Translations under genes and position numbers: made by a program
Shown: positions 12,677-64,000 of the stretch, in pieces
Position numbering within the stretch: the first letter of the stretch is position 1
Layout: every line of letters starts with the position of its first letter
The notes under the pieces: generated by a model
What the model saw: only the letters and a program-made list of their open reading frames with translations
Database searches by the model: none
Told to the model about the DNA's origin: nothing
From: Narcine bancroftii
Taxonomy: Eukaryota
Assembly: GCF_036971445.1 (NCBI RefSeq)
Contig: NC_091473.1
Location: 86,986,001 to 87,050,000 of the forward strand
Length of the DNA: 64,000 nt
Direction: 5' to 3'

Positions 12677-15600
12677 CTGTGAAGAAAAAGCATAGCAGTT
12701 CTTGTTTAAAATAGAAAGCTGATAAAATGATCCAGAAGTGATTTAGATTTCTAATCTTGATGATGTGAAAAGAATTTATGACTAGATTTTCTTTACATTA
12801 TGAAACAAAAATTGTAGATCTACTTTTGTTAACATTTAATTGGGAAAATAGACCTTTGAGTTCTAACAGTTCTATTTTAAAAATGGAAACTTGGAATTTT
12901 AAATTGAGAGCCAAAGCTAATTTAAGAAGATCTATTACAGCTTAATTTTAAAAAAACCCATAATAAACAGTAATGATTTACAGTTTAATAAAAACCCTGG
13001 AATCCAGAATTCAAGCAGCCTCATCAACCAAAAAAAGGTTAAAAAAATCTTTTTCATAATTGACACACTGCTCCATTTGTTTGCCAATCGACACAACCTC
13101 AAGCAACCAGAAAATACACTTATCCCCAAATACCAAGGGTTTTACTGTATTAACGCTAAGTTGCAACATACAACGGGAGAAAAATCTAAAACTTCTAGAT
13201 ACTCAATTAATAGAGCTATTTAGGAATTACTTGCATTTGGCATTACTAAGGAGAATAAGGTGAATAGTTAAAGTGCATGGGAAATCAGCAAAATGTTCCA
13301 AATGGTGAAGAAAATCCAACAGGGAACACCTGTGGAAGGAGAGGGTTAGTGATTGCATTGATTCATTAACAGCTAAATATTACCAGCATTTTCTGTTATG
13401 GGATTACAAACTGCCAGGGAGCAGTCCTATAGATCATTAAACAAGAATAGAGGCTGTGGTTTGCTTATTCTACTGTTGGAGGATAGCAATTGTCCATAAG
13501 CTTCCAGTTACCATCAATACAGGTAGTATTCACATTCACTTTTGAATTGCCTGTTTGGCAATAACCACTATATTTTGAAATCCAATCCTGAAAAAAAGTT
13601 TACTTACAAAGAAGGGTGTAATCATTGAAGAAAATGAATGCAAGTTAGATTAATGTTTTATTTCATAATTGTCCTTGAACGAAAGCATAGTTGATGTTTC
13701 TTGGTGTGAGAGCCAACTACAGAAATCTATGGTTAATTGTTGATTAGAGTTGGGGTTAATCAAGTGTATAAGCAAGGCTTTGAGAGGATACGACTATGAT
13801 GCTTGTATTAAGCAGCATATAGAAAACAAGACAAATCTGAATAATTTTTGTGCTTAATTTATGAAAGATGAAATAAGATAAATAAAAGTGGATTGTTTAT
13901 GGAAGCACGTGAAAGGAGGAAGGGAGTGGAAGTAATGCTACTATCAACAATATGATTTAAAGACTGAAACTGGAATTAGTTAGCAAGAGTGAGGTTTTCT
14001 GGATCATCAATTATTCCAAAATGTATTTGATGGACTAGCCTTCGGTGCTGTTTGAATATAGAAAACACAGCAATAAGCTACTGTTTTCAAATGAGGCATG
14101 TTGCACACTGAAGTACTAAGCAGAAGCTGCCTGTAAGGGCTGTTGTCCGGTTCAACAGCATAGGCCGGCCACTCATCTTGTTACCATAAAGAACACTTGG
14201 GGCTAAGGAAAAGCTATTCAGCCAGCCAGCAGAGGAGATAGCAACTTCCATTACACCATCTCGAGGTACTGAGATCCAAGCAACTTGTTAACATGAAAGC
14301 AGCTGTGCACACACTCATTGTGCCGACTGTAACAATGTAACAGTATCACAATACAGAGCAGACACACAACTCACAAGCACTCCTCACAGCATATTACTTC
14401 TGTGACTCCACAAGGAGCCATATAGTGAGGGGATTAACCTTTAACTGTTTTTTTGCATAAAGGGTACTTTGAGGGGGATGAGCCCTCAAACATGTTTCTG
14501 GCACATCAGCAAGTCTTCGCAGCAAATTATTTATTAATGCTTGTAATGGCCCCATTTGGCTCTTATTCCTAAGAAAACATTCTGAGTGCTGAGGCAAGTA
14601 TAATGTAGACATACAGCATAGTAACAGGTCATTTCGGCCCACAAGTCCAAACCCCCCCAATTAACCTACACCATGGTACATTATGAATGATGGGAGCAAA
14701 CTGGAGCCCTCAGGGAAAATATCTTCTTCTTTGGCTTGGCTTCGCGGACGAAGATTTATGGAGGGGGTAAAAGTCCACGTCAGCTGCAGGCTCGTTTGTG
14801 GCTGACAAGTCCGATGCGGGACAGGCAGACACGGTTGCAGGGGAAAATTGGTTGGTTGGGGTTGGGTGTTGGGTTTTTTCTCCTTTGCCTTTTGTCAGTG
14901 AGGTGGGCTCTGCGGTCTTCTTCAAAGGAGGTTGCTGCCCGCCAAACTGTGAGGCGCCAAGATGCACGGTTTGAGGCGTTATCAGCCCACTGGCGGTGGT
15001 CAATGTGGCAGGCACCAAGAGATTTCTTTAGGCAGTCCTTGTACCTTTTCTTTGGTGCACCTCTGTCACGGTGGCCAGTGGAGAGCTCGCCATATAACAC
15101 AATCTTGGGAAGGCGATGGTCCTCCATTCTGGAGACGTGACCCATCCAGCGCAACTGGATCTTCAGCAGCGTGGACTCGATGCTGTCGACCTCTGCCATC
15201 TCGAGTACTTCGACGTTAGGGATGAAAGCGCTCCAATGGATGTTGAGGATGGAGCGGAGACAACGCTGGTGGAAGCGTTCTAGGAGCCGTAGGTGGTGCC
15301 GGTAGAGGACCCATGATTCGGAGCCGAACAGGAGTGTGGGTATGACAACGGCTCTGTATACGCTTATCTTTGTGAGGTTTTTCAGTTGGTTGTTTTTCCA
15401 GACTCTTTTGTGTAGTCTTCCAAAGGCGCTATTTGCCTTGGCGAGTCTGTTGTCTATCTCATTGTCGATCCTTGCATCTGATGAAATGGTGCAGCCGAGA
15501 TAGGTAAACTGGTTGACCGTTTTGAGTTTTGTGTGCCCGATGGAGATGTGGGGGGGCTGGTAGTCATGGTGGGGAGCTGGCTGATGGAGGACCTCAGTTT

Positions 15601-18600
15601 TCTTCAGGCTGACTTCCAGGCCAAACATTTTGGCAGTTTCCGCAAAGCAGGACGTCAAGCGCTGAAGATCTTGCTATTCTCCAATCATCCGGCACCTCTC
15701 CTGTGGCCAGAGAAGACACCATCTCTTCCCCCGCTTCCTGTAGTAACTTGTGATACATGTCATCTGGTCACAGACAGCGCAGGATTTAAACCCCAGACCC
15801 GATCACTAGTGCTTTAAATGCATTGTGCTAACCGCTATACCAAACGTACCGCCCCTAAAGTATTGAACCTAAAAAGCTGCACAGATCTCAATCTGTTCCA
15901 ATTAAGATTATAATGAAAGGTCACTGATCTAAAACATAATCCACTCCCCAAAATAGCCACCAGGCCCCTGAGCAACAGATATGTGGACAGATTTTAGAAA
16001 AGTGGAAAAAAAAACAGGGTAATTGTTATGGGAGACTTCAACTTCCCTAATATTGACTTTCTAAGTGCAAAAGGTTAAGATGGAGAAGGATTCGTGACTC
16101 AGTATGTGGACAAGCTGACTAGAGGAGAGGCCATACTAAATCTAGTATTGGGTAATGAACCTTGTCAGATAACAGACCTCTTGGAGGGTGAGTATTTTGG
16201 AAACAGCTACCACAACTCCCTGACCTTTAGTGTAGTTATGGTCCCGGATAGGAGTAGAAAGAATTAAATTTTAAAAAACTTGGATATACAGCACAGTAAC
16301 AGGCCATTTCTGCCCACGAGCCCAAGCCGACAATTTACACCCGATTAACCTACACCCCCAGTATGTTTCGAATGGTAGGAGAAAACCAGGGAAAACCCAC
16401 ACAAACATGGGGAGATGTACAAACTCCTTACAGCGTGGGATCCAAACCCTGGTTCTGATCAATGGTGCTGTCAAGGTGTTGTTTGCACTAACCACTATGC
16501 CAATTAAGCTGCCAAATGGGAAAGTGTTTAATTGGAGAAGGGTTAATTATGATGGGATTAGGGAGGAACTTGGGAAAGTAAATATGTTCTTAGCGAAATA
16601 AACAGCAGAACCACTTGCATGGGGTTTGAGACAGATTTGTCTGAGACGGAAAAGATGGCAGGGTGAAATAGCGACAGTTGACAAAAGAGATGGAACAGCT
16701 AGTTAAGAAAAAAGCAGCAAGTCAATAAGGGCTCACGAGAATTGAGAATAATGGAGCTAGAAGAGGGCATGAAAATGCTTGGCAAATAGGATCAAGCATA
16801 ACCCTAAGGCTTGCATGTATGGGAAAAACAGGATGGCAAGAGTGAAGGTAGGGCCACTTGGGAATATAGGTGGAATACGGCTGGAGACAAGTTATAAATG
16901 AATACTTTTCTACAGAGTTCACTCAGGAGAGGGACCTTGATGAATGTGAGGCCAGTGCAGAACAGGCTAATGTGTTTGAACATTTTGAGGTTGAGAAGGA
17001 GAATTTGCTGCATCTTGAATCTCAGGACCAGATGACGTGTATCACAAGTTACTACAGGAAGTGGGGGAAGAGATGGTGTCTTCTCTGGCCACAGGCGAGG
17101 TGCCGGATGATTGGAGAATAGCAAGTGTAGATCCCTCGTTAAGGAAAGATTTGTAGATTTTAGACATGCAGCATGGTAACAGACCCATGCTTCCCAATTA
17201 CACCTAATTGACCCCTAGTACGTTTCAAACGGTGGGAGGAAACCAGAGCGCTTCCCCCCACCCCCAACCTCAACCTGGGTAAAACTTAAAAACTCCTTAC
17301 AGACAGCACAGGATTCAAACCCTAGTCCTGATCGCAGGGACTACAACAGTGTTGCGCGAAGTGTGCTGCCTGATAGGTAATATCCTGGGAATTATGAACC
17401 AGTGAGTCTTGTGCCAGTAGTGGGTACATTATTGGAAAGGATTCTTAGGAATGGAATTTACAAATATTTATAGAGGTATAGTCAGCATGGCTTTCTTTGT
17501 GCCTCGTAAGCCTGGTTAAGTGTTTCAAGGTGATAAAAGAAATTGATAAAGGTACGGCAATAGATGTGGTGTACATGGATTTCAATCAGGTCCTCATGAT
17601 AGACTCGGTCAGAAAGTCATGAGGTACAGAATCGACTTACCTGCAGAAAGCAGAAGGTAGTAGTAGAGGGAACATATTCTATCTACAGGTCAGTGACTAG
17701 TGGAGTTCCGCAGTAAATAAGTAGAGGGATGGGTTAGTTAAGTGTGCAGATGACAGAGGGGTTGGAAGTGTCAAAGGTTGTTGGAGGTTACAACAGAATA
17801 TAGACAGGATACAAAGTTGGGTGCAGAGGAGGCAGATGGAGTTCAATCCAGATAAGCGTGAAGTAATGCATTTTGAAGGTCAGTTCTGGTTGTCTCATTA
17901 CAGGAAGGATGTGAAAGCTTTGGAGGAGGGGCTTAAGAGATTTACAAGAATGTTGTCTGGATTTGAGAACACATCTTGTGAGGCAGGATTAACAGAGCTA
18001 CAGCTTTTCACTTTGGAGCAAAGGGTGACTTAATAGAGTTCTACAAGATTATGAGAGACATACTGTAGATAGGTGGACAGTCAGCACATTTCACCAGACA
18101 GTAGCAAATACAAGACATCTGCAATAAGGTGGGAGAAAAGTTGAAGGAAGATTTTGGGTTTAAGTTTTTCTTTAATGCACAGAGCAATGGAATGGTAGTG
18201 GAGGCTGCTAAAATAGGGATATTTAAACAATTCTTAGGTACATTGGTGCAAGAAAAATAGAGGGTTATAGTGTGAGCTAGGGAAGGTTTAGATTGTGGAG
18301 TAAGTTTATATAAGTCAGTACAACAAAATAGGCTGAAGGGCATAGACTGTTATGTTCTATGTACTATTGGATGCTAAATGGAGTGCATACCTTTACAGAT
18401 CACTAAAACAACTGATGCGAAACATTGCCAAAAAGTTAAATATTTAATTTGCAATGACATAATTCTCACCTTGTGCTAAGACTTGGATGATGTCTCCTTC
18501 TTGAAAACTCAGATCGACAGGGGCTGAGACAATGTAGTCATATAATGCCACCACCTATTGTGAAAATCTTGTTACAAAATGTTTATCTCTGCAGGTACTT

Positions 18601-42600: not shown

Positions 42601-45600
42601 AATTGGGGCACTGTTTTTAGGAGGCCAGTACTTGTGCTGTGTTGGGCTGGTTCAAAGTCCAAGTAAGCCGGTTTCAACCTGTCAAGTGTGAAAGTCTCTT
42701 CCCTGCTGCCAATGTCCAAAACACAGGTGGAGCCGTTGAGTCTGAGGACATGGTATGGCCCCTTGTAAGACTACTGTAGAGGTGGCCGGTGAGCCCCGCG
42801 CTAAACAAACACTGTATTTACAGTCAGTAAAGTTCTTTGGGATGTAAATGAAGGGTTGGCCGTGGGGTCTAGGTTTAATGGAGGCCAGGGTGCCTAGGCG
42901 CTCACGTGGCTGGAGGCTCCCCTAAGTCCTCAGGGGCTGTCATGAATTTGTCTGGTATAACTAGGGGAGCGCCATAAACCAACTCAGCAGAGGATGCCTC
43001 GAGGTCTTCCTTGGGTGTGGTGCAGATGCATAACAGGACCCAAGGGAGTTCGTCAGCCCAGTTAGGTCCGTTAAGCCATGCTATTAAGGTTACTTTAAGG
43101 TGTTTTGTTTTATGTGTGTATTATTTATTGGTTTTTGAGGGGGGTGGGAAGGGATGAAGGGGGGAAGGGGGGGAAGGAAAAAAAGGAAATGTCACTGTGT
43201 ATACTCAATGAAGAACATTTGTATATATTGTTATTGATATGGTTCATAGTGTAATAACCAAAATAATTACAAAAAAAAAGGTTACCTTAAGGTGTCTGTG
43301 GAACCTCTCCACCAACCCATTAGCCTGTGTGTGATATGCCGTGGTGTGGTGGAGTTGGGTCCCCAGAGCATGGGCTAAGGCGGTCCACAGACTGGAAATG
43401 AATTGAGACCCCTGTCCAATGTAAGGTGTTTGGGAACCCCGAAACACATGCTTCTGTGGAAACCTCTGATAGTGGCACTACCTCTGGCCATCTGGTCGAC
43501 CATTGTGAGAAGAAATCGTGTGTCTCTGCATATGGGGAGAGGGCCCCACAGTATCAATATGCACGCAACTGAAACGGCGACTTGCTGGCTCAAATGTCTG
43601 TGGTGGAGCTTTGATACCAGTCTGGATTTTGGATGACTGGCACTGAGTACAAGTCCTGGCCCACAGCGTGTCCCTTTTGCGGAGGCTGTGTCAAACGTAC
43701 CTGTTTGCCACCTTTTTGACTGTAGTCCTGATGGTGGGGTAAGCCAAGTTGTGGACCGAGTCAAAAACTCGCCTCTTCCATGCAGCCGGAATGACAGGGC
43801 GAGGTTTACCCGTCGAGGTGTCACAGAGCAGCGTGTGAATGCTGAGGGAAATCTGGATGTCCTCCAGTTTTAAGCCGATGAGTGCTGTCCAGTACGCGGG
43901 AATGTCAGGGTCTGCTTGCTGCGCATCAGCCAGGGCTGCATAGTCGATGCAAGGGGTAGGGTTATGCACCGCCAAGATAGCCGGAGGGGATAGGGCGTCG
44001 GTCACCACATTGGATTTGCCGGCTATGTGTTCAATGCCCATTGTAAATTCGGAAATGTAGGACAGATGCCGCTGTGGCCTAGCTGACCATGGATCTGACA
44101 CCTTACTGAAGGGGTTTGTGGTCCAAGTAAATTTTGAACTTCCTGCCCTCCAGATAGTAACGAAAGTGCCAAATTGCCAGGTATAAGGCTAACAGTTCTC
44201 TTTCAAAGGCACTGGACTTGAGCTCTGGTGGCCTGAGGTGTTTACTGAAAAAGGCCAGCGGGTGCCACTGTCCATTCACCAGTTGCTCAAGTACACCCCC
44301 GTCCACTGTGCTGAAGGCGTCTGTCGTGAGGGCGGTTGGGGCTTCTGCCCACGGATGCACGAGAAGGGTGGTGTTGGCCAGGGTGTTTTTGGTGGCCTGG
44401 AAGGCCTCGGTCGCCTTTTGGGTCCATTGTATGTTTTGACTGGGTCCTGCCATGAGGGGAAAGAGTGGGTTCATGATGCGGGGCCACTGCAGGTATGAAG
44501 CGGTGATAAAAGTTGACCATACCTCCAAAGTCTTATAGTCCCTTCACTGTTGATGTCATGGGGAAAGAGCGAATAGCATCCACTTTAGTGGGTAGAAGTC
44601 TGGCTCCATGTTGCTTAATACAATGGTTCAGGAAGTCAATAGTCTTTCGGCCAAACTGGCACTTGGCCGGGTTGATAGTTAGGCCAAAATCGCTCAGCCT
44701 GGTGAAAAATTGTTTTAAGTGGGCAGAGTGCTCGGTGCGGGTAAAATGACAGTTATGATGGTGGATTTTGGGATGTCTTTGGGGTATACTGGGATCTGGT
44801 GATAGTCCCTGATGAGGTCCACCTTTGAGAATATTCATGCCCCTTGCAGGTTAACCGGGAAATCTTGGATATGGGGCATGGGCTCTTTGACTGGTATGGT
44901 GTCCTCATTGAGGTGGCAGTAGTCTCCAATCACCTGCTGCCTTGGGGACCATGTAGAGAGGAGAGGCCCAAGGACTATCGGTGTGCTGCACAATGCAGAT
45001 TTCCTCCATCTTTTTTGAACTCGTCCCTGGCTAGGTTAAATTCCTCGGGGGCGAGACACTGCGCCCTGGTGTGGAGGGGAGGACCCTCTGTAAAGATTTG
45101 GTGCCTCACCCCATGTTTGAGTTCTACCGAATGGAAGTGAGGCGTGGTGATGGAGGGGAATTCTGCTAGGACCCAAGCCAATTCGTTTTTGGCAATACTC
45201 ACCGAGTGCAGGTGGGGGCTGGTGAGTTCTGTACCCTTGAGGGAGAGTGACTGAAATGTCCAGGCATGCACCAGCCAGCGCCACTTGATATCCACCAGGA
45301 GTGAGTTGTCCCGCAGGAAATCTGCACCAGTAATGGTTGTTGCATAGCCACCACCGTAAACTTCCAAGTGAATTGGCTGTACTTGAAGCGTAGGGGAATG
45401 GTGCGGGTGCTGAATGTTCGGATGTTGGAGGAGTTTGCCACTCAGAGTCCCAGCCCACTTTGCCGCAGGGTGTCTTGAATGTGTAGCAGCCTATGCAGTT
45501 GGCAGGTCATTGCAGCCATTAATGACAGCCGGTCTGGGCATTTCCCTGGAACACACAGGGGGACCAGCATCGATGGGCCTCAGAACCCCACCGTTGGTGA

Positions 45601-48600: not shown

Positions 48601-51600
48601 CTTCAACACCACGTACTCATAGTATCTGCTGTAGTAATCTATCACTACCATAATTGATTCACCCGTCGGTAAAGGTCCAAGAAAATCAACAGCTACGTCG
48701 ATCCATGGTCCTGTCGGAAGTTGCGTACTCCGGATCGGTCTGGCGGATTACTCCTATTTGTGATTTGACATCCGTGACAAGTTTTAACAAATTTCTCTGC
48801 GTCTTTATCACAACCTAGCCACCATACCTTGGTCCTGAGGTTTTGCTTGGTACCAACAATACCTAGGTGTCCTTCATGCGCTAAGGATACGATCTTCGGT
48901 CTCAATCTTTGCGGTATAACCAATCTGCAACCTCTTAATACACACTGTCCGATGCAACAAAGTTCGTCTCTAATGGGAATGTAAGCCTTGTGAGTACACT
49001 TGTCCCATTGTCCACTCTGTATGCATTCTCTTACTTCCATGAGTTCTGGATCACATTCGGATTCTCTCTCGACCTCCTTCGTAGTCACAGCTTTCGGTGT
49101 CGCCTGAATAGCTACGAAGCGTACAAAGCTCTCTGTTTCTGTTCCCAATTCTGACTTGGATTGTGGACCACCATCCTTCACCAATCTGGACAGCGGATCT
49201 GCAATGTTTGCTTTCCCTGCAATGTGGATTACTTTATATTTGTAGGGTTGTAGTCTGAGTACCCATCTCTCTATTCTGGCACATAGTTTGGATCTAGGTG
49301 CATAGATCACCTCTAATGGCTTATGATCTGTGATGAGTTCAAATTCAATGCCGTATAAATATGCATGGAACCTCTCACAGGCCCATACAAGTCCGAGTGC
49401 TTCTTTCTCTGTCTGAGAGTATCTTCTTTCCACATCTGATAACGATCTGCTGGCATAGGCAATGATTCTTGGTCCTCCATCATGCATCTGGACCAACACG
49501 GCTCCTAAACCAACCGGGCTGGCATCCGCTATGACTTTGGTTGATTCCGCCGGATCGTAATATCCAAGAGTTTTTGCATCTGTCAGGCTTTGCTTCAGCG
49601 CTGTGAACGCTTCCTTCTGCTCAGATCCAAAATGAAATGGTACACCTTTCCTGGCTAGTTTCCTTAGTGGTTCTGCCACTGTAGCGAAATTAGGAATGAA
49701 CTTTGCACAAAAATTGACCAATCCCAGGAAACTCCTCACCTCTGTTGCGTTCTGAGGTGCACATGCCTCTGCAATAGCTTTCACCTTGGCCTCTGCAGGG
49801 TTTAGTCCTTCCCGTGTAAGTCTGTGTCCCATGAAGTCCATTTTTAACACACCGAACTGGCACTTGTTTCCATTCACGGTAAGGCCTGCCTCCTGTAGTC
49901 TAGATAGTACACGCCTCAACCGTTTGTCATGCTCTTCCTTCGTTGGTGCATGGACTATGATGTCGTCAGAAATGTTGGCAACTTCAGGAATGCCTTGAAT
50001 CACTCGATGGATTTCATACTGGTAGATCTCAGAAGCTGCATTAATTCCAAATGATATTCTCTTGTAACGATACAATCCACAGTGAGTCACAAATGTTGTT
50101 ACATCTCGGGAACCTGGATCCAGCTCTAATTGATGATAGCCCCATTTCAGATCAATTTTTGAGAATATCTTGCTGGTAGTTAGTTCTTGAAGTATTTCCT
50201 CCACTGTTGGTATAGGGTGTCGTTCTCTAATTATAGCTTCATTGGCCATTCTCATGTCAACACATAGTCTTATGTCACCCTTTGGTTTGGGCACAATCAC
50301 TACTGGGCTGACCCATTGTGTCGAATGTTCCACCGGTTCAATAATGTCTTGTTCGATCAATTCTTTAATTTTGGCTTCGACTTTCCCACGAAGTCCAAAC
50401 CGAGTTCGGCGCATTGGTTGTGCCTTAGGTTTGACCGTTTCATCTACCGCTAGCTTCAATTGTCGACCTTTCAGCTTTCCTACTCCTTGGAAGACTGCGG
50501 GGAATTCTTGCTTCATATCCTCGTATGACTGAATTGAATTGACACAAGCTCCAATATGAAGTATTGCCAGGTCTTGCGCTGTGCTTCTACTCAACAATGG
50601 TTCTCCCCTCTCTTCTATGACCATAAACTCTGCTTCGGTGTACTTATCTCCAGCTTCAACAGTTGCAGTAAAACATCCAATGGTCTGCAATGGCTTGGTT
50701 GCTGTGTATGGATACAGTTTCTTGGAACACTTCTTTGAGGTACAGATGATCTTTTTCCTTTTCAACTTCTCCCATAAATGTCGATCAATCACATTACTGT
50801 CACTGCCTGAGTCTACAATGACCTGCACTGTCACTCCATCAATGATCACTGGGACCTTCTCATGACGTACTTCATTCAACATAAATTGGTAACAACTCTG
50901 TTCCTCCTGGGTATCATCATCGTCACCGTCTATCTGGCGAATGGTATCTTTCTTTCCAGGATACTTTCCTTTCCCCCAGGCTTTGCCTTTGGAAGTTGTA
51001 CTCTTCTTCTTCTGGTCTGCATTGGACTTGCTTTTGCACTTCTTTGCAAAGTGGTCCTTACCTCCACACTTTCTGCAAACTTTGCCTTTGGCCAGGTAAT
51101 ATGGGTCTTTTCCAAAGTGACCTCGGTTTCCACATCGATAACACTCCACGTCCTGTGTCGGCGTATATCTTGGCTGGTTATGGCGATGTGAGAGCCTCTT
51201 AATTTGCTGGCTTGAGTTGTCTTTCAGGGTCATGGTATGAAATTGCCCTTCAACAGCCTCTAATGCAGCAGCAATGGTTAAAGCATCGGTGTGTTCCAAC
51301 TCACTCCCTCTTTCCAGTAGACGTCTTCTGAGTTTATCTGATCTGCAGTGCTGTATGACTTGATCCAATAATTGGTTGTCCAAATCAGCTGGCATGTAAT
51401 TGCATCCAACAGCTAGCTGGCGTAGTCTCGTCACGTACTGAGCAATTGTCTGGCCATCTTCTTGTCTCGTTCTCCGAAACAAATGGCGTTGAAATGTAGC
51501 ATTCGGTGTCACTACATAGTGTGCATTTAATGCATCTACCGCTTTCCGGTACTCATCCTTTCTTCCAGTATTCAAAAGTGTCTTAAATGTTTCCCGAACT

Positions 51601-54600
51601 GTGGGTCCAGCCGTGAAAAGAAGTAACGCCCTTCTCTGCGCTTTTTGTTCAACTGTACCGGTATCTAGAAATAGGCCACGACTGTCGGCGTAGGATTCAA
51701 ATTCTTCCAGCCATGCCTTCCACTTCACACTTACAGTGCTTGCATCACCCGTTGGGTCAAAATGAGCAATTCCACTATGTGTTAGAAAGTCACCGTCTGC
51801 CCCAGCCATGAGGAAATATTCCAGCCCCAAAAGTACTGACTCACAGAGAAAATTCTTATCACCTTGAAGTTGTCTGTAATCCTCTGTAATCTTGTTTAGT
51901 CTTTAATTTTCTTCAAGCTTCTTTCATCCTCGTCGCCAATGTCACATTTGTGGCCCGAAATGTGAAGTTAATAAAACATCAAACACAAGTTTTATCAGGT
52001 AAACTTCTCAGTGGCTTTATTCTCCCGTTTCCTTTGTTCTCCTGCTTGTGTTCTTATCTCTCTCTCTCATACCACATGACTTCCGGTACATCTCATACAT
52101 ATTCATTATCATGACACAGGTCAGCTCCCTGTTCAATGCAAGGCACTAATAAAAATGGTAACTAAACCAGCTCAAATTTGAGTTTCGGATTTTGTATTTT
52201 AAAAAGTGTCGAAATCACTTAACCTGGTTGAGTTCTGCAATGCCTATCTGTTCGGTATTGCCAACTGCTTAATTCTTTATTACCATCCTTTCCCAAGTTT
52301 TCAGTTAGCCTGGATTTCCTGTAACAAATCAAACAAACCCTTCTCAAATAAAAAAAGCCTTTGGAAATGGATGCCACAACAATTAAGATTCAACAGCCAT
52401 TTACTTATCATTAGAGAAGATCAAGTAAGGCAGTTAGGAGAGAAACTGGATGTGAGGAAGTGAACTGGGCTGCTCTGTTCCCTAGGAAATGCCAGATTCT
52501 ACTCCTGTTTCCGACTTCTATCCCATTCAGAACCAAGTATTTGACAGCATCTTTGAAGAGATTCATTTTTTTGGTCATGTCCACAATAATCTCATTCTGG
52601 TTTAATCTCACAAACTGGAGATTACAATGGTATCAATGGATAATGGATTGTCAGACCTAGGCCATTGAAATTCAGTGAGGACAGCAGCATTAAACTGGAC
52701 CATTGCTTGCAAAATCCTTTAGCAACGAAGGTGGGAAGCCAGAGTACTGATTGGTTAAATGGGAATGATTCATTACCATGGCCTCTCCCAGGAAGTCTTG
52801 CTTTTCCAGCTGAGCCACGATCTTTTTCTTTGGTCTGAAAAATTTTCCAACTGGAAACTGCAGGGGCTGAAACAGCTCTCGGTTCTGAGAAGAGAGATCA
52901 AGATGCAAATAGTCACTGAACTTAAAAAACAGACAATCTGGATATTGCAGGGTGTTTGTGACACATTAAACCCCATGCAACTGCCAGCAGCTTTATAGTT
53001 CCTGTACAAGCCACGTAAATATACAAATCCCAAAGTTGCTGTCAGGAGTTTGTTGGCACTTCGCTGATTACATTCTGATGCTGGTCTCTGGAGATAACAT
53101 AGGGGCAGGATGTTGCAGAGATTTCCATCTCCTGTGATGGTCAATCTGGCAGAGGAACAGAAAGTTGGTATCTATACAAATGCAATCTGTCCCCAAGGCA
53201 ACAATTTATAAGCTGCAATTTCATGTGGTCTGAGGGCAAGTAGTTCTCGTACCAAGGATACGTTTTATGGTGTTTCTATAAGAATTGATAAGAGACACTG
53301 GCACTTGGGGACCTGATGGATTTCCTTAGGCTTTTGAGGAAGTCAAGATGATGGCTTGGCTATAGTGTCAATGTGTTTATAGTGGTTACAATTTTAATTG
53401 AGACATTCAGAAATATTGGCAGTTGTGAGGGGCTGTTCTCTCACCCTGCGCTATTACAGCACAAATTCCATCCAATATTTAGGAAACGGGTGTGCTATGA
53501 GGAAAATTAACTTCCTAATATTTCAAGTTTTTTCATCTCATTCCATTGATGATAGCAGCTGGAGCCTCTTACTGACAGACCCAACAAATGGCATTTATAC
53601 CAAAGCACAGATCTCCTTTCCTAAGATTATATGACTCAAGCATATAATGAGCCAGGACACTTGGGAATTTCCCCGAACATATATCGGTTGTTAGCCAACT
53701 AAGGCAGAATCTACTGCCCATCTTCATACATCGATTCTCATCAAATACATTGATAGATACAGCAAATTAATGATAATTCATATGAACAAATGAATTAGGA
53801 GCAGGAATTCCACTCAGCACCTCAAACATGTTCCATCATTAAATAAGTTAACATTTGATCTTACTGCAACCTCAACTTGGCATTCCTGTGATAACCTTTC
53901 ACCCTACTGGTTTATCGAGAATTTATCTGCCTCTGCCTTAGAAATATTTTAAGTCCTGCTTTCACTTTTTGAAGAGTTACAAAGATATACAGTAATCATA
54001 AAAATGGTCATCTCATTAGTGATAAATAAGTTAACCCTCGTGTTTAAACAGTGACACTTCGTTTTAAATCTACCAACACGAAGAAACATCCTTCCCTCAA
54101 CAAAAATCTACACAGACCATCATGATCTTGCATGTTTAAATAAAGCCTGCAATCACACTTCTAAACTCTATACAACCTTTCCCCCTAAGAAAATCTATTT
54201 CAAATATTAAGCCAGTAAACCTTCTTTGAGCTGTTTCCAATGAATTTTCCTTAAATAAACAGAGCCTCAGTGTGCACAGTTCACCAGCTGTGGTCTCACC
54301 AATGTCCCAAATTGTCATGGATATCACATGCAACCTGTGGGCACAGCAGAGAGTAGCAAATATACAAGGCATTTAGAGACAAGAGGAAAGACAATACCCA
54401 AATGGCTTCCAGAGCTTGATCCACAAAATTGTGCTTGGCTTCCATTTTAAAAGTCAAGGCTTTCTTTACAATCTGTTCAGCTTTGTCCCATTCCTGTATC
54501 ATGACGTGTGACAATGCCAAATTGTGAAGCACCTGCAAGGAACAATTAACAAAGAGGTTAGAGTACTAGTGTTGTCTGTAAATTTAAATGACCAGTTTTT

Positions 54601-57600
54601 AACAATAAGCATTGTGATACAAATAGAATTGTGATAATAAATAGTTTGTGGTCTAAATATGAGCTTTATTATACTGCTGGGCTCCATGCTCAGATCTTAC
54701 AGTGTTTGACCTTGGAATTAGCATTTTAAACAACTTCTATCTGACTCTGCACAGCTATTGGTGGGCATTTCAAAACTCCCGTTCTTTGTCTATATTCTAA
54801 CCCAGTGGTTCTCAATCTTTTTCTTTCCACTCACATACCACTTTAAGGAATTCCTATGCAAGAGGTGCTCTGTAATTAGTAAGGGATTCGTTAAAGTGGT
54901 ATGTGAGTGGGGGAAAAAGGTTGAGAACCCCTGCTCTAGAACTAATTGTTGTTGAAATATTTTGCTTGAGAAAAATTGTCATTGACTCATTTCCTTTAGA
55001 GTTATGAAACCGTGCACATAACAAGTCAATTAGGTACAATTAAAACAGTGATTTTCAAACTTTTTCTTTCCGCTCACATACTACTTTAAGTAATCCCTTA
55101 CTAATCACAGAACACCTATGCATAGGGATTACTTAAGGTGGTGTGTGAGTGGAAAGAAAACGTTTGAGAACCACTGCACTAACTCCTCCCATTCACTTAT
55201 TGACTCCATAACTTAGGTTTATCCCTATGGTAGCCCTGGTTTTACTTTATCAAAGGTATCCCAGCAACCCCCTCCCCCCATCCTCCTTGCAGTTTTATAA
55301 ACTTCTTTTGTCTTCACCCTAGTTCTGACGAAGGGTCTATGACCTGCAGAATATTTGCAGCATTTTCTGCTTGTATTTTTTTTTTAACTTTCAGTGAAAG
55401 CTGGGCATTGATTACCCATTTAAATGTCATTTAGAAGACATGGCGCCACTAAAACATCAGTCTAACTTTAAAACATTCGATGACACAAAGATTCGTCACC
55501 CTCTTAAAAGAGAGTAGGATTACGACTTCATGTGAACTTGACTTAAATTCTGCTCCTTGCTTGAAGTCTCAGCTGTTCAAATCAAAGATCCTTTCTCCCA
55601 CAGTATTTTTCTTTATTAATCCAAACTCCAAACTTCGTTATGGATCGAATGGAAATACTCTGCTTGGGGGATGAGAGGGAGGGTGAGAATCATTGTGCCA
55701 ATCAAAATATTTTGGCTCCATCACCATCACAGAAACTGCTCCTGGTCAGTCTGTCAACTCCCTTCCTCACCAGAGTGCTAGTATTGCTTTAGCTAGATCC
55801 TTCCAATCCATCCTGAAATATTTGGCAAAGCACCTGCAGGGTACTCCTCCATGCTAGGGATACATGTCAACTTGATGAGCAACCCAGACAGGTTCAAACA
55901 TTTCTCAATGAATGCAAGTGTAAGCTTGCATAATGCAAACCGTCTGCATGTTGTTTTTTTTTCCCCATTTACTGTTAAATGTTCTTATCCAAGATTTTGG
56001 ACATGTTAGCCAGCCTTAGGAAACAGGTTGGAATTAATATACAGATGATGCCAAAATGCAGAAAATCATTGTGTAAATTTGTGGGCATTGCCCAGGAAAC
56101 AACCACAATGTGCAGCATTCCAGGACCCACGTGCAAGGTGAACAATACCTCCTCTGCCCACTGGACTGCTAATCCAACTTAAAGCTTCCGACAGTTCAAG
56201 AAGCATCTTAGGGTTTGATTCCTGATCCTCAACTGCTATCATCTAAATCTTGTGCACCAGAAAGACCAGCTAAGAGCTTACATCATGTTGATGCCTCATG
56301 AACCCCAAAATGTGCATGAAGTGAGTATTTTTCTTTTAGGATCAATCCCTTATTGTACAATCTACCAAGACTGATTTTCTCTCTGTTTCTGCCATGGGTG
56401 TCCTTTTTTCCCCATACTCTCTATTTTTTGAACTGGCCAGCTTGGCATGAGTGAACATATACTTTAAATTTACTCCTGGTGAAATGCAGACCCCTCTACC
56501 TGCCCGGGGAATTCTCGGCCATGCTGATTGCCGCAGTCTAAATTCCACCTTCAGCTAATGAGGCTGAAGCCATGAAGGAGCTTTATGGTGCCATCTGCAT
56601 AGCCTAGACTTCCTACCCTGATGGTGCCATGATTGTTGTTGATGACTTCAATCACACCAACCTGAAAAATTTTTTACCACGGTTTCAACAGTAGCCCCTT
56701 TTCTACTGGGATTCCAGATAATTGGCTGGGCAGTGATCTGGGGTAGGAAGCCCTTTGTGCCATTTCCACTGGGCCACTGTTAACTGGGACAGTAATTGCT
56801 TTTCCACTGAACACCCTCATCTCCGGGGATCAGAGTGTTCTACCTTCAACTGGAAACAGGTGACTTTCTGCTGTCCCTTTTCCATTGGTTTTATTAGCAA
56901 ATGCCAAGGCTATGAGTAGGGGTAGAGGTGGTTAATCCCCAGCATGAATTGATGTCATTTGACATCAACGTTCGGACAGTGTACCTTTTCCACTGGACCC
57001 TGTCAAAGTAAATTCCTGGGATGGGGTGCCAGTGGAAAAGGAGCTAGAATGTGAACTTCACCACCAAAGAGAACACCCTGAATCAGGTCTACATCAACGT
57101 CCTTGGTGCATACAAGGATGAACCTCGTCCCCACCTTGGTTACTCAAATCACATGTCTGTCCTGCTAACCCCAGCACGAGGACCGCTGGCAAAGCAAACT
57201 AGGTTAGTTCGCAGGGAGATCAGGACGTGGCCTGGGAGGTGAGGGTGGTCATAGCAGTGCTGCAGAACTGCCTTGAGACCAGTGCCAGTGACTGTAGCTG
57301 TTTCAGGGAGGCAGCTACCTACATTGGTCATAGAAACATAGAGGAGTACATGAGCTCAGTGACTAGCTACATCAGTAAGTGCATTGAGGATGTCACTGAG
57401 ATAAAATGCTTCATGACCAGGGATAACCAGAAACCATGGTTGGTTGTAGAGATCTGGGCCCTTCTCAGAGATCGTGATGCTGCCTTCAGGACAGGGGATA
57501 GTATGGCACTAATGTCAGCCAGGGCTGAACTCTCCCATGCATTCCAGAAGGCAAAGGAGGGTATCCACAGAAGATCCACAGGCAGCTGTGGGATACTGGC

Positions 57601-60337
57601 GCACAAGGCACATGTAGCAAGGGATCTAGACTATTACAAATCACAAGTCAACCTTGCAAATCAAGAACAATGACTCCTTCCTTCCGGACACACTTAACAC
57701 CTTCTATACACGATGTGATGATAAGAGCAGGATGATACCAAAGAAAGCTCCATGCTCCCCTGGTGAAGGGGGCCCCGCATAACCAGAGCTGAGGTGAGGA
57801 GTACCCTATCCAAGATGAACCCACACGAGGCGGCGGGAACAGACAACATACCTGGTCAGATACTGAAGGACTGCGCAAACCAACTGACAGAGGTCTTCAC
57901 AGACATCTTCAACACTTCACTGCAGAAGTCCACCATTTCCACAGGGTTCAAGACAGCCAACATCATCCAGGTACCCAAGAAGGCAACAATAACAGGTCTC
58001 AATGACTAACTCCTTGTGGCCCTGATGTCCACCATTATGAAATGCTTCAAGCAACTGGTGATGGAATGCATCAAAGCACATCTGCCAGAGACGCTGGATC
58101 TATTTCAATTCACCTATAGAAGAAACCATTCCACAGACGATGCTATAGCCTCATTGCTTCAATCTGTCCTGGCCCTCTTGGAGAATGACACCTCATATGC
58201 CAGGCTGCTCCTTGACTTCAACTTGGCATTTAATACAATAATTCCCCAAAGGCTGGTGGAGAAGCTGTCATCACTGGGACTCAACACCCCTCTCTGTAAC
58301 TGGATCCTGGACTTCCGAATGGAAAAAACAGTTTGTCCGGGTTGGTAGCAGGGTACTGAGCACCATCACACTGAGCCCTGGCACACCTCAGGGCAGTGTG
58401 CTCAGCCATGCCTGTTCACACCACTGATCCATGTTTGCATCACCAGATCCAGTTCCAACAATGTCATCACATTTATAGATAACAATAGATGGCCTCATCA
58501 GTAACAACAATGGGTCGCACTACTGAGAAGGGGTGGAAAATGGTGAGAGAGTAACAACCTGAGTCTCAATGTGGTCAAGATTAAGGAAATGATCTTGGAC
58601 TTCAGGAGGACCAGAAATGACCTCCCTCCACTACACATCAATAATTCTGTAGTTGAGAGTGTGGAGAGCACCAAGTTTCTTGGAGTTCACTTAATTAGTG
58701 ACCTATTATGGACACTCTACTGACTCAGTGTCAGATCACTCATTGGAGAGCTACTGGTACCATGTAACCCAGTACTACCTGTTGCATGGTCGAGTGGTTG
58801 GCAACTAAACTTGCACCCCGACCAGGCTTGCCTGGTGCAGAGGGTGGGTAGACACCCTGCAAGATGAAAAACAAGACCTGTCAAAGAGCAGATGAACCCT
58901 CTCGTAGGGTCAATGGCCATCTAGCAAACACGTGCTGTGAAGCACAGAAACGGCATCCCTTGTATCAAAGCTCGGTCTGGCCATTCACTGTAACAGAACT
59001 TCCCCAGCCGTCTTGGACCTCACCATGCCACTGGATCCAGCAGAGGATGTCGAGAGGGTGGGTCTGGAACTGTGCAACCCCTACTCACTTAAATCCATTC
59101 ACACACATACTGTTCCTTTCTGAGGAGTAGGGATCGTCATATCAAACTCTGCAGACTGAAAGGAACCATCATCCTATGGGATGGATAGCCAGGTGATGAT
59201 GAATGTGGACTCTCAACATATCCTTACCAGGCTTGCCAGGTATAGAAGATTACACTTCCTGAGAAGACTGAAGCTGGCAAGGCTACCGGCTACCATTATG
59301 TCAGCCTTCCACAGGAGCTCTATTGAGAGCGTCCTGGCCGGCTTTATCACAGTGTGGTACGATTGCAGCAGAGAAATGGATTGGAGGTTAATCCACAGAG
59401 TGGCAGAGAGGATCACCGGAGTGTCTCTTCCCCCCCGACCCCCCACCACCACCCACCCCACCACAATGATATGATCTCCCAGGATTATTATTTGAAGAGG
59501 GTGCACAAAATCATTGAGGACCCCTTCCACCCTTCACACAGCATCTTTCAGCTGCTCCCATCAAGAAAGAGGTAGAGGAGTATCAGAGCCAGCACCACCA
59601 GGCTGGGGAAGAGCTTCTTCCCATAGGCAGTGAAAATGGTGAACGATCACACTGCTCACACTGACCATCCAAGACTCTCATTTGTACAAAACAAATTTAT
59701 TTATATATTTTTATAGATATAATACTTATCCTGCATATGCTTTATTTGTCTGGTTGCGTGTCTGCATGTTTTGCACCGAGGACCAGATTGGATTCGTCAG
59801 GTTGTACTTGTACAATCAGATGACAATAAACTTGACTTACCTGACAAGCACTCAGCTTGTACCTTAGGCCCAGCTGATTGTAGTCAATCAACTGATTACC
59901 CCTCAGTAGATTAAATGCTTCTGTGAAATCCCTCAAAGCCTCTTCATACCTGAGCACAAAATTTGGTGCAATATAAATAAAACAAAATAACCAGAAGATA
60001 TTACACAAGTGTATTATGACTTCCATCAACAGACATTGGTTTGCAAGTTCTGACGAACATACAGTACAAATGCCAAAACAGACAAAAATAAAATCAATAC
60101 TTCAAGTCTCACATTCATACAGCTTTTAAAATGTAATTGATAAAGTGAAGTCAGACTTCCCCAAATAGCCTACCACAGAAATCTCTGGGTGCCTACTGAT
60201 TTCACTTCAAAATGTATCAAATCAATTCCAAGATAATGTAGGAAAGCAACTTACTTTTCATTTTTGTATAAGGTATTCCCTCGTTGAAAAAAAGCCACTG
60301 CCAAATGCTCATCCCTGCAGATACTCTTGTCAAATGC
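12576..60337 (-). CDS. NCF2: NCF2 / p67phox, spliced and 5'-partial: join of the 14 exons listed below (1308 nt, 435 aa plus stop); TPR - activation domain - SH3 - PB1 - SH3
   Basis: All exon phases join into one open frame. Motifs seen: [13 protein letters not shown], LGxAxVVAS, two SH3 domains, and PB1 with the conserved Lys (IVKIHFK). Exon sizes 83/109/135/108/60/44/142/76/152 match human NCF2 as recalled. SMG7 synteny and the PB1 lysine favour NCF2 over NOXA1. Confidence 0.93.
14585..15856 (-). mobile_element. tRNA-derived V-SINE/HE1-like SINE split by an RTE insertion
   Basis: Halves at 14585-14722 and 15770-15856 match sibling copies at about 16280-16505, 17200-17370, 24095-24265, 32525-32771 and 61765-61985 (+). 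Confidence 0.75.
14723..15668 (-). mobile_element. RTE-clade LINE, 5'-truncated, young, with an intact 292-codon RT C-terminal frame
   Basis: ORF 14780-15658 has [27 protein letters not shown] and [10 protein letters not shown]; (GAA)n tail at about 14723; CpG-rich. Confidence 0.9.
15960..18362 (+). mobile_element. Decayed CR1 LINE carrying two SINE insertions
   Basis: Endonuclease motif VMGDFNFP at about 16025, RT remnants, 3' tail tatgttctatg; SINEs at about 16280-16505 and 17200-17370. Confidence 0.78.
18470..18554 (-). CDS. NCF2: NCF2 exon (SH3-B): [28 protein letters not shown]
   Basis: TAG acceptor, GTGAGA donor, 85 nt; ALYDY and LSFQEGDII motifs. Confidence 0.9.
19188..19649. mobile_element. 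Tc1/mariner-type MITE with nested inverted repeats
   Basis: TIR agtacaactccaattatccaaaat / attttggataattggagttgtact, TA flanks, and an internal tgtgacatc/gatgtcaca inverted pair. Confidence 0.8.
20802..20916 (-). CDS. NCF2: NCF2 exon (PB1, C-half): [38 protein letters not shown]
   Basis: CAG acceptor, GTAAGT donor, 115 nt. Confidence 0.92.
21682..21833 (-). CDS. NCF2: NCF2 exon (PB1, N-half): [51 protein letters not shown]
   Basis: TAG acceptor, GTACGT donor, 152 nt. Confidence 0.92.
22826..23502 (+). mobile_element. hAT (Charlie/Buster-like) internal-deletion derivative
   Basis: TIR tgtcaaactc / gagtttgacacccctg; 8-bp TSD ctctaaga/cactaaga; transposase N-terminal remnant [21 protein letters not shown] at about 23094. 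Confidence 0.85.
24498..24547 (-). CDS. NCF2: NCF2 exon (linker): [17 protein letters not shown]
   Basis: Strong TTGTTTTTTTCAG acceptor, GTAAAA donor, 50 nt. Phase 1 to 0 restores the frame. Little sequence homology, so the call rests on splice sites and phase. Confidence 0.72.
25509..25584 (-). CDS. NCF2: NCF2 exon (linker): [25 protein letters not shown]
   Basis: TAG acceptor, GTGAGG donor, 76 nt; DIPAPP motif. Confidence 0.88.
25862..30030 (-). mobile_element. Near full-span decayed CR1 LINE (ORF1 esterase-like, endonuclease, RT)
   Basis: VVISGLLP (28546-28749), [10 protein letters not shown] (28095-28298), [19 protein letters not shown] (26450-26779); interrupted at 29109-29885. Confidence 0.85.
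29109..29885. mobile_element. Tc1/mariner-type non-autonomous element inside the CR1
   Basis: TA-caggcat...tataac at the left end and gttata...atgcctg-TA at the right end. Confidence 0.6.
30342..30389 (-). CDS. NCF2: NCF2 exon (end of SH3-A): [16 protein letters not shown]
   Basis: TAG acceptor, GTAAAG donor, 48 nt; GLVPxNYLE motif. Confidence 0.9.
30983..31573. mobile_element. Tigger/pogo-like MITE containing a C/T-rich minisatellite (about 31070-31425)
   Basis: TA-ccgtaaatattcg / cgaacatttacag-TA termini; repeated gtcgcgctgccatctctccccc-like units. Confidence 0.75.
33872..34013 (-). CDS. NCF2: NCF2 exon (SH3-A): [47 protein letters not shown]
   Basis: CAG acceptor, 142 nt, non-canonical GCAAGT donor; DNWATVMFN motif. 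Confidence 0.92.
34767..34810 (-). CDS. NCF2: NCF2 exon (proline-rich region): [15 protein letters not shown]
   Basis: CAG acceptor, GTAAGT donor, 44 nt; phase 0 to 2 as both neighbours require. Confidence 0.85.
35435..36463. mobile_element. Solo LTR, copy 2 (longer)
   Basis: TGTGACA...CGTAACA termini; flanks aact/gact; same family as 6648-7576. Confidence 0.75.
36750..39775 (+). mobile_element. Decayed CR1 with a nested CR1 3' fragment (about 36927-37470) and a MITE (about 38563-38785)
   Basis: [16 protein letters not shown] and KFAD motifs; two separate CR1-type 3' tails. Confidence 0.72.
41521..41580 (-). CDS. NCF2: NCF2 exon (activation domain): [20 protein letters not shown]
   Basis: TAG acceptor, GTATGT donor, 60 nt; FSGFAPLQP motif. 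Confidence 0.94.
42223..46812 (-). mobile_element. Gypsy LTR retrotransposon, CsRn1-like, decayed
   Basis: 5' LTR 46450-46812 (tgtag...ctaca) and truncated 3' LTR 42223 to about 42570; PBS TGGTGACCCC (tRNA-Trp type); gag [18 protein letters not shown]; RNase H and integrase remnants ([11 protein letters not shown]); flanks atag/atac. Confidence 0.88.
43104..43277 (+). mobile_element. Short L1/Tx1 3'-end insertion with poly(A), inside the Gypsy integrase
   Basis: 18-bp TSD aaggttactttaaggtgt (43086-43103) / aaggttaccttaaggtgt (43278-43295); matches the 3'UTR of the L1 at about 62570-62760. Confidence 0.85.
47358..52116 (-). mobile_element. Full-length young Gypsy LTR retrotransposon (Mag/SURL-like)
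   Basis: LTRs 47358-47535 and 51940-52116 differ by one T in a homopolymer; perfect 5-bp TSD caggt; PBS TGGCGACGAGGATG (tRNA-Ser type); PPT AAAGGAGGGA. Confidence 0.96.
47712..51809 (-). pseudogene. Single gag-pol polyprotein of the Mag-like Gypsy (CCHC knuckles, protease, RT, RNase H, integrase) with three lesions
   Basis: 1045-aa ORF with [28 protein letters not shown] and HHCC motifs. Lesions: 1-nt deletion near 48739, an extra T near 48270, and TGA at 47919-47921. The frame continues to [17 protein letters not shown] at 47712. Confidence 0.9.
52777..52884 (-). CDS. NCF2: NCF2 exon: [36 protein letters not shown]
   Basis: CAG acceptor, GTAATG donor, 108 nt; PVGKxFRP motif. Confidence 0.93.
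54398..54532 (-). CDS. NCF2: NCF2 exon (TPR4): [45 protein letters not shown]
   Basis: CAG acceptor, GTATTG donor, 135 nt. Confidence 0.92.
54803..55176. mobile_element. Composite fold-back: two inverted hAT MITEs (54803-54933, 55046-55176) flanking a 112-bp spacer
   Basis: Each arm has its own cagtggttctcaa-type TIRs and the arm interiors are reverse complements; outer flanks ttctaacc/cactaact. Confidence 0.85.
56692..57046. mobile_element. Non-autonomous DNA transposon inside Rex1
   Basis: TIR tagccccttttctactgg / ccagtggaaaaggagcta; repeated internal tttccactg motifs; superfamily uncertain. Confidence 0.7.
58718..59205 (+). mobile_element. Non-coding retroposon with a (TGA)n tail inside Rex1
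   Basis: Interrupts the Rex1 RT; TSD tggacactc/tggactctc; tail gtgatgatgaa. Confidence 0.6.
59841..59949 (-). CDS. NCF2: NCF2 exon (TPR, Rac-binding insertion): [36 protein letters not shown]
   Basis: CAG acceptor, GTAAGT donor, 109 nt; RGNQLIDY motif. Confidence 0.95.
60255..60337 (-). CDS. NCF2: NCF2 exon (TPR): [28 protein letters not shown]
   Basis: CAG acceptor, GTAAGT donor, 83 nt. Confidence 0.93.
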
Positions 60338-62569: not shown

Positions 62570-64000
62570 TTTTTTTATATAATTTTTATTTTTCACACTG
62601 GGAACCATATCAACCAAAATACATACAAACATTTGCCTCTTAAATATACACAGTGCCATTTTCTCCCCTTTTTTCCCCCCTACCTTCTCACCCCCCCTCC
62701 CCCTCCATTTAACATATCCAATTAACATCCAATTCAACATATACAATACAATAAAATCATTAAACAATGTCATCAAACAATGAAAAATAAACAAGAAAAA
62801 TGTGTCATCTACTTTTACACACTGGATCAAGTCATTTTCTCTTCTTATCATTTTAGGGGGGATGAGCCCTCTCTGTTAGTTTCCATGTATAGTTCCCAAA
62901 TTTGTTCAAATAATGTGAATTAATTTTTTAAATTATGTTATTTTTTCCAATGGAATACATTTATTCATTTCCATGTACCATTGCTATACTCTCAGGCTCT
63001 CTTCCAATTTCCAAGTTAACATTATACATTTTTTTGCTACAGCTAAGGTTATCATAATTAATCGTTTTTGTGTTTCATCCAGTTTGAGGCCTAATTCTTT
63101 ACTTCTTATATTACTTAGAAGAAAGATCTCTGGATTTTTTGGTATGTTGCTTTTTGTGATTTTATTTAATATCTGATTTAGTTCTTCCCAAAACTTTTTC
63201 ACTTTCTCACATACCCAAATTGCATGTACTGTTGATCCCATTTCCTACTTACAGCAAAAGTATCTATTTGATAATGTTGGATCCAATTTTTTTTAACTTT
63301 TGGGGCATGATATATAACCTGTGTAACCAATTATACTGTATCATGCGTAACCAGAACATAACTTTTCCCATATTTCATTTTTTATCTTTATGTTTAAATC
63401 CTTTTTCCACTTTTGTTTAGGTTTATAGCTTATTTCATCATTTTCGTTCACTTGCAGCTTGATGTACATGTTCGTTATAAATCTTTTAATTATCATTGTG
63501 TCTGTGAGGGGAATAATGGACATCCCTATCAACGTTAGCAGTAATTCTTTCCAATATTCTAAGTCTTCCTGCAATTTCTTTATTAGTGTCTGATAATTTA
63601 ATTTGTACAAGTGGCTTAAATTATTATCTAACCTAATACCTAGGTATCAGATTGCTTGTGTTTGCCATTTAAATGGTGATTCTTTTTTAAATTCTGTATA
63701 ATCTGCATTACTCATTGGCATCACTTCACTTTTCTTTGCGTTAATCTTTCTCCATACTCCTTCAATTTCTTATGTAGTTCTTTTATTGATATTCCTGGTA
63801 CTGTTAAGTATACTATGATGTCATCTGCAAATAAACTGATTTTATACTCCTCTTTTATTTTTATCCCTTTTATTTTATTTTCTGTTCTTCTCAGTTCTGC
63901 CAATGGTTCTATTGCTAAAGCGAACAGTGAGGGAAATAATGGACATCCCTGCCTAGTTGACCTACTTAATTTAAATTGGTTCGATACATATCCATTTACT
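62570..64000 (-). mobile_element. L1/Tx1-type LINE 3' part, running off the window
   Basis: RQGCPL and KISLFADDIIVYL RT motifs; C-terminal HAIWVCEKV; G-rich 3'UTR and A-rich tail. Confidence 0.88.

Follow-up and report, generated by a model that had tools for sequence, protein, structure and literature searches.

The NCF2 gene and its splice donor

The window, a stretch of 64,000 nucleotides from a 3.3-Gb vertebrate genome, carries NCF2 on its minus strand. This gene assignment, made in the initial annotation, is borne out by protein matches, exon mapping and domain architecture. The exon at 59841-59949 matches residues 87-122 of p67phox (NCF2), while a protein search with the exon at 54398-54532 found the 493-aa NCF2 of the electric ray Narcine (98% identity). 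The exons of this protein are distributed along the window, and Pfam finds in it the TPR, two SH3 and PB1 domains by which NCF2 (p67phox) is told from NOXA1. The features of the gene discussed here are:

60255..60337, minus strand: preceding NCF2 exon, 83 nt; the 305-nt intron that follows it is skipped in the contig of run X7
59841..59949, minus strand: NCF2 exon, 109 nt, TPR domain, residues 87-122; protein match and RNA contig
59835..59840, minus strand: 5' splice site GTAAGT of NCF2 intron 54533-59840; used in the X7 contig
54398..54532, minus strand: next NCF2 exon, 135 nt; spliced to 59841 in probable RNA; protein mapping

The donor of intron 54533-59840 reads CAG/GTAAGTCAAGTTTATTG on the gene strand, the slash marking the exon boundary, and the plus strand accordingly reads ...CAATAAACTTGACTTAC/CTG at 59841. 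In a 2,435-nt contig of run X7, 60255-60337 is followed directly by 59841-59949 and then by the exon ending at 54532; the loose end before 59839 is the 54398-54532 exon, with the jump at 59839-59841. As this contig splices there, the donor at 59840 is used in splicing, judging from a single contig of a single run, which is probable RNA by its spliced behaviour, no run being recorded as RNA. Elsewhere in the gene, a predicted NCF2 exon end at 33872 on the minus strand is followed by GC (AAG/GCAAGT), likely marking a GC-AG intron.

A 5'-truncated LINE antisense to NCF2

Between these exons lies a decayed LINE, whose 3' end runs directly into the donor of the exon at 59841, as initially described. 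Its parts are:

56470..56473, plus strand: left TTAC; together with 59837-59840 it forms a candidate target-site duplication of 4 nt, and its last base is the first of the LINE
56473..59838, plus strand: decayed Rex1-like LINE, 5'-truncated, antisense to NCF2; delimited by family homology ends and segments
56692..57046, unstranded: MITE nested in the LINE, 355 nt, with 25-nt terminal inverted repeats, 80% complementary
~58720..59252, unstranded: second nested repeated insert, ~530 nt, dividing the reverse transcriptase (RT) region
59825..59838, plus strand: LINE 3' end, AATAAA followed by (CTTGA)n, here CTTGA CTT; its four final bases occupy donor positions +6 to +3

The copy starts inside the putative endonuclease region and continues with the reverse transcriptase, a PF09004 region, the 3' UTR and the tail. 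Remnants of RVT_1 (E=1.3e-6) and PF09004 (E=3.6e-7) are detected by Pfam; measured against the column majority of the family, the copy retains 88-91% identity. On the left, the flank reads ...ACTTTAAATTTAC up to 56473, and family homology begins at that same base, the C of the left TTAC, from which most of the 39 other copies align. Family sequence extends further 5', with sequence absent from the window, and the window copy is therefore truncated inside the putative endonuclease region. An extension of the consensus 5' of 56470 had been expected to speak against an insertion at this point; it exists, but shows only 5' truncation. The element had further been described as a 3.4-kb LINE, and while this span holds, it comprises ~2.5 kb of LINE and two inserts that are absent from other family copies. 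The first of these, the MITE, is presumably Harbinger-like, and both would be mobile elements that inserted later into the dead LINE.

Several further elements occur in the window. At 54800-55200, the intron that holds the LINE also contains a short element of very high copy number and inverted structure. Also in an NCF2 intron, at 48693-51902 (minus strand), a 1,069-aa stop-free frame carries gag, protease, RT and RNase H-like motifs with an integrase frame adjoining, which we take to be a Ty3/Gypsy-like LTR retrotransposon, and a second, decayed LTR retrotransposon of like kind is found at ~43400-45500. A 297-aa frame at 14780-15673 (minus strand) resembles, we assume, the end of an RTE-type LINE, and 62600-64000 (minus strand) is presumably an L1/Tx1-like fragment.

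Classification of the LINE family

The closest proteins to the family RT are teleost open reading frames combining RT and PF09004, with ~65% identity. Rex1-type RTs are recognised by motifs matching primers described in PMC4635592, FSSAFNT and RLFLLR, spaced ~550-575 nt apart. FSSAFNT, encoded by primer RTX1-F1, is present in 113 of the 120 RT relatives, and the window copy carries FNLAFNT and RRLHFLR 1,050 nt apart, the ~530-nt insert included, with a spacing of mostly 571-574 nt in the teleost relatives. In its RVT_1 domain and motif spacing, the reverse transcriptase is of the Rex1 type. Matching of the Rex1 primers at the nucleotide level was uninformative, and the motif spacing was used instead. 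A further trait described for Rex1/Babar elements is a 3' UTR with a tandem oligonucleotide tail of 5-7 nt behind it (PMC4635592), and the 5-nt (CTTGA)n of the present family is such a tail. The frame upstream of the RT in the family (L038) has no Pfam match, while some RT relatives carry PF14529 or PF03372 there. By RT similarity, motifs and tail, the LINE appears Rex1-like and fits Rex1/Babar descriptions. The family is abundant, the genome containing 7,518 exact 14-mer tail ends versus 57 for a control.

Register of the tail with the donor

In the family, the (CTTGA)n tail comes after AATAAA; it varies in length and stops at variable points in the 29 other copies read. It is the reverse complement of AAGT(C), and in the NCF2 intron it is in register with donor positions +3 to +6 (CAG/GTAAGTCAAG). 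Since this register reaches 59838, only the GT at +1 and +2 is clearly host sequence, while +3 to +6 are all tail-like. The initial annotation had assigned +5 and +6 to the tail, which was right as to tail-like sequence but too narrow in its extent. As the tail is periodic, gains of a unit leave GTAAGT unchanged, and such a gain is seen in organism C, where one more ACTTG unit than in organisms A and B stands directly behind the donor (window 59830-59838). Tail length has accordingly changed after the insertion without altering the splice site.

Age of the insertion and related organisms

The same tail is found at the donor in organisms B and C (runs X5 and X6), with no substitution listed across 59822-59861, although the contigs of both cover only ~25-30 nt of the LINE, which does not exceed the 31-letter bridging rule. 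Being shared in this way by three organisms, the insertion is old. It also predates the split of A and B, since the difference in the neighbouring intron (59950-60254, 305 nt; at least 19 substitutions relative to organism B) is smaller than the decay of the LINE itself. For organism D (run X8), the exon stretch gave no match, which is not evidence of absence.

An empty site was found neither in the contigs of related organisms nor among metagenome matches. The 5' junction was not displayed in organisms B or C when the LINE was included in the query, as repeats swamped the matching. An 838-nt contig of organism B (X5) matches 55974-56269 and then continues with 336 unmatched letters from window position 56270, and this organism may differ just left of the LINE 5' end. 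The metagenome scan returned two matches, one unrelated and one a bony-fish-like NCF2 exon (L184:356-465), probably host DNA. This exon, too distant for the introns to be aligned, has the same boundaries and the donor GAG/GTATGT, with G at +5 and T at +6, which is weak evidence for the explanation preferred below. The sequence ATTTAAAAG in that contig resembles the proposed empty site and was treated as an AT-rich coincidence.

The donor before the insertion

TTAC is common to the left flank (to 56473) and the donor, as initially noted, and from this a 4-nt target-site duplication, an empty site reading GTAAATTTAAAG and a change of the donor from GTAAAT to GTAAGT had been proposed. If TTAC is a true duplication, the LINE would have landed by chance in a donor reading CAG/GTAAAT, primed by 2 nt (TT), and its tail would have changed +5 from A to G. 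The two TTAC stretches lie where such a duplication should place them, and NCF2 has other donors lacking G at +5 (AAG/GTAAAG, CAG/GTAAAA and TGG/GTATTG). Duplications of this size would also be in keeping with the peak at 3-5 bp described for the L2 and CR1 clades in PMC4245944, and microhomology of 1 nt at the 5' end agrees with the annealing pathway in PMC4760211, according to which microhomology of 1-2 nt is common at the 5' junctions of LINEs in these clades.

The family itself argues against this reconstruction. Matches of at least 4 nt at both ends occur in 5 of 48 copies (7.7 expected) and in 3 of 26 (4.8 expected); pooled, there are 9 in 76 versus 12.8 expected, and in tight windows 8 versus 7.9. 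Unrelated left flanks match the NCF2 junction equally well in 8/76 cases (tight) or 15/76 (wide). Furthermore, the family reads GAGTACCTCC at the truncation point, so that the LINE may account for one base of the left TTAC, or for three if a 1-nt gap is allowed. The counts concern copies with both ends, interrupted, low-scoring or off-locus copies having been dropped first, and the test is of modest power because the copies are old and HMM ends imprecise: planted 4-nt duplications were detected in 39% of 150 simulated cases versus 21% of unplanted ones, HMM ends were placed correctly to 4 nt in only ~70%, and 3-nt duplications are invisible to it. In addition, GTAAAT donors are far rarer than GTAAGT donors. 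The shared TTAC is thus real yet not beyond chance, and an upgrade of the donor from GTAAAT is a possible but unlikely history. It is more likely that the donor already read GTAAG(T) when the LINE arrived.

Do LINE tails target splice donors?

The initial annotation went on to suggest that 5' splice sites could be targets of antisense insertion by ACTTG-tailed LINEs, which would rebuild the sites. As the tail is complementary to the donor, priming by microhomology would favour GTAAGT words, and this idea was examined among tails sampled as exact or one-mismatch matches of one or two units. Ends reading CTT plus a base other than G number 1,215, of which 607 continue with A and 40 with AC; a further 12 have a two-unit tail. 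In the two patterns screened, 52 ends are donor-like versus 7,518 exact tail ends, and only the NCF2 end is a shown donor, where 0.3-1.9 real donors would be expected by chance, a figure that rests on an assumed 2e5 donors and on assumed hexamer shares. AG/GT is not enriched, adjoining the tail at 6 of 51 sites other than NCF2, compared with a background of 8.0% (P=0.22); including NCF2, the count of 7/52 is slightly above background. The 3' flanks are heterogeneous, with AC following only 40 of the 1,215 ends, and the family therefore lacks the single target motif of a sequence-targeted non-LTR retrotransposon.

Inspection of 53 sites (the 52 and L147) revealed 15 adjoining repeats, 6 without a frame of 15 aa, 7 with G/GT and an open frame (one being NCF2) and 25 with an open frame but no G/GT. 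Four of the six other G/GT candidates, aligned together with the NCF2 control, returned NCF2 proteins only (14/14), a weak result, given a possible bias of the search words towards the first row; this homology test concerned coding exons only and left out the 25 sites without G/GT and two with it. Among 9 exact tails with AG/GT, NCF2 alone is at a shown exon, and four further ones have repeat flanks (3/4) or frames no longer than 21 aa. Selection, moreover, would keep tails that abut donors and so favour their detection. Strong donor targeting is excluded among the tails and patterns screened, which leaves room for a mild excess, and a preference of these LINEs for splice donors is most improbable. 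No paper on LINE tails targeting donors was found in a listing-level search of the open-access literature. Scarcely less improbable is a combined scenario in which a weak GTAAAT donor was made consensus GTAAGT and CTTGA LINEs are modestly over-represented at donors through tail-donor pairing, the tail growing and shrinking without breaking GTAAGT as a self-healing route.

An apparent avoidance of AC after the tail (40/607 versus a background of 18.7%) was rejected, as 20 of 22 sampled ends with tail plus A read AA, often in decayed tail units. Two exon screens were not used, since both missed the NCF2 exon: one based on acceptors and polypyrimidine tracts, for which this exon was the positive control, and one based on Pfam, in which 0 of 39 flank peptides matched. 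Three one-mismatch look-alikes of the tail (L169, L174 and L180) have no LINE body. At L180, an open frame is followed by AAG/GTAAGT, and donor-like words can thus resemble the tail without an insertion.

A probable chance insertion, likely tolerated, at a working donor

The locus is probably best explained by an old Rex1-like LINE lying antisense inside a working NCF2 donor, where it likely came to rest by chance. Its tail, with AAGT at +3 to +6, leaves GTAAGT intact, and this is the likely reason why the insertion was tolerated. A few bases inside the intron, the endonuclease may have cut the gene strand, and in target-primed reverse transcription the free end (GTAA, GTAAG or GTAAGT) could then have served as primer by pairing with UU or ACUU of the RNA tail. 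Truncation at the 5' end would have occurred in the endonuclease region, with joining via ~1 nt of microhomology. With a donor reading GTAAG(T), up to 4 nt could have paired with the tail and no clean duplication would have been left, like being replaced by like. Priming by microhomology had been proposed from the start, and the register between tail and donor is as such priming would give; the priming itself is what we infer from it. Survival may then have depended on the retained GTAAGT and the antisense orientation.

The insertion is a clean illustration of why an antisense element can survive right beside a donor, and, being shared, it can serve as a phylogenetic marker for these rays. LINE tails would contribute splice-site sequence to a small extent if donor upgrading or enrichment were true; the counts point to chance, with a handful of such cases in each genome, and not to a mechanism.

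Comparison with known systems

The Rex1/Babar non-LTR retrotransposons of Volff and colleagues, as described in PMC4635592 and PMC6274825, resemble the present family in 5' truncation and in a 3' UTR ending in a 5-nt tandem tail, and their endonuclease region upstream of the RT has a putative counterpart here. They differ from it in that the host here is a cartilaginous fish and the tail unit is CTTGA, and none of the protein matches is named Rex1. Junctions described for L2- and CR1-clade LINEs in PMC4245944 and PMC4760211 are likewise 5'-truncated with ~1-2 nt of microhomology and include short duplications, blunt joints or target-site truncations, like the junction in NCF2, whereas a duplication peak such as theirs is undetectable in the old Rex1-like family.

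A second comparison concerns retroposons in genes. The canine merle SINE in PMEL (PMC6091007) is also an antisense retroposon insertion, yet its coat phenotype is described as tied to tail length, whereas the NCF2 LINE goes with normal splicing and no known phenotype. Closest are the exon-proximal intronic transposable elements analysed by Zhang et al. (2011; PMC3088655). In mammals, elements lying closer than 20 bp to an exon are reported there to be found preferentially beside donors and in antisense, the situation of the NCF2 LINE, and this is explained by selection: with a donor core of only ~6 nt, purifying selection would leave the survivors biased to that side. Those elements are mostly poly(A)-tailed and near the donor, while the microsatellite tail in NCF2 extends into the donor core. 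The NCF2 insertion, verified, old and tolerated, is thus a real but ordinary illustration of this known pattern.
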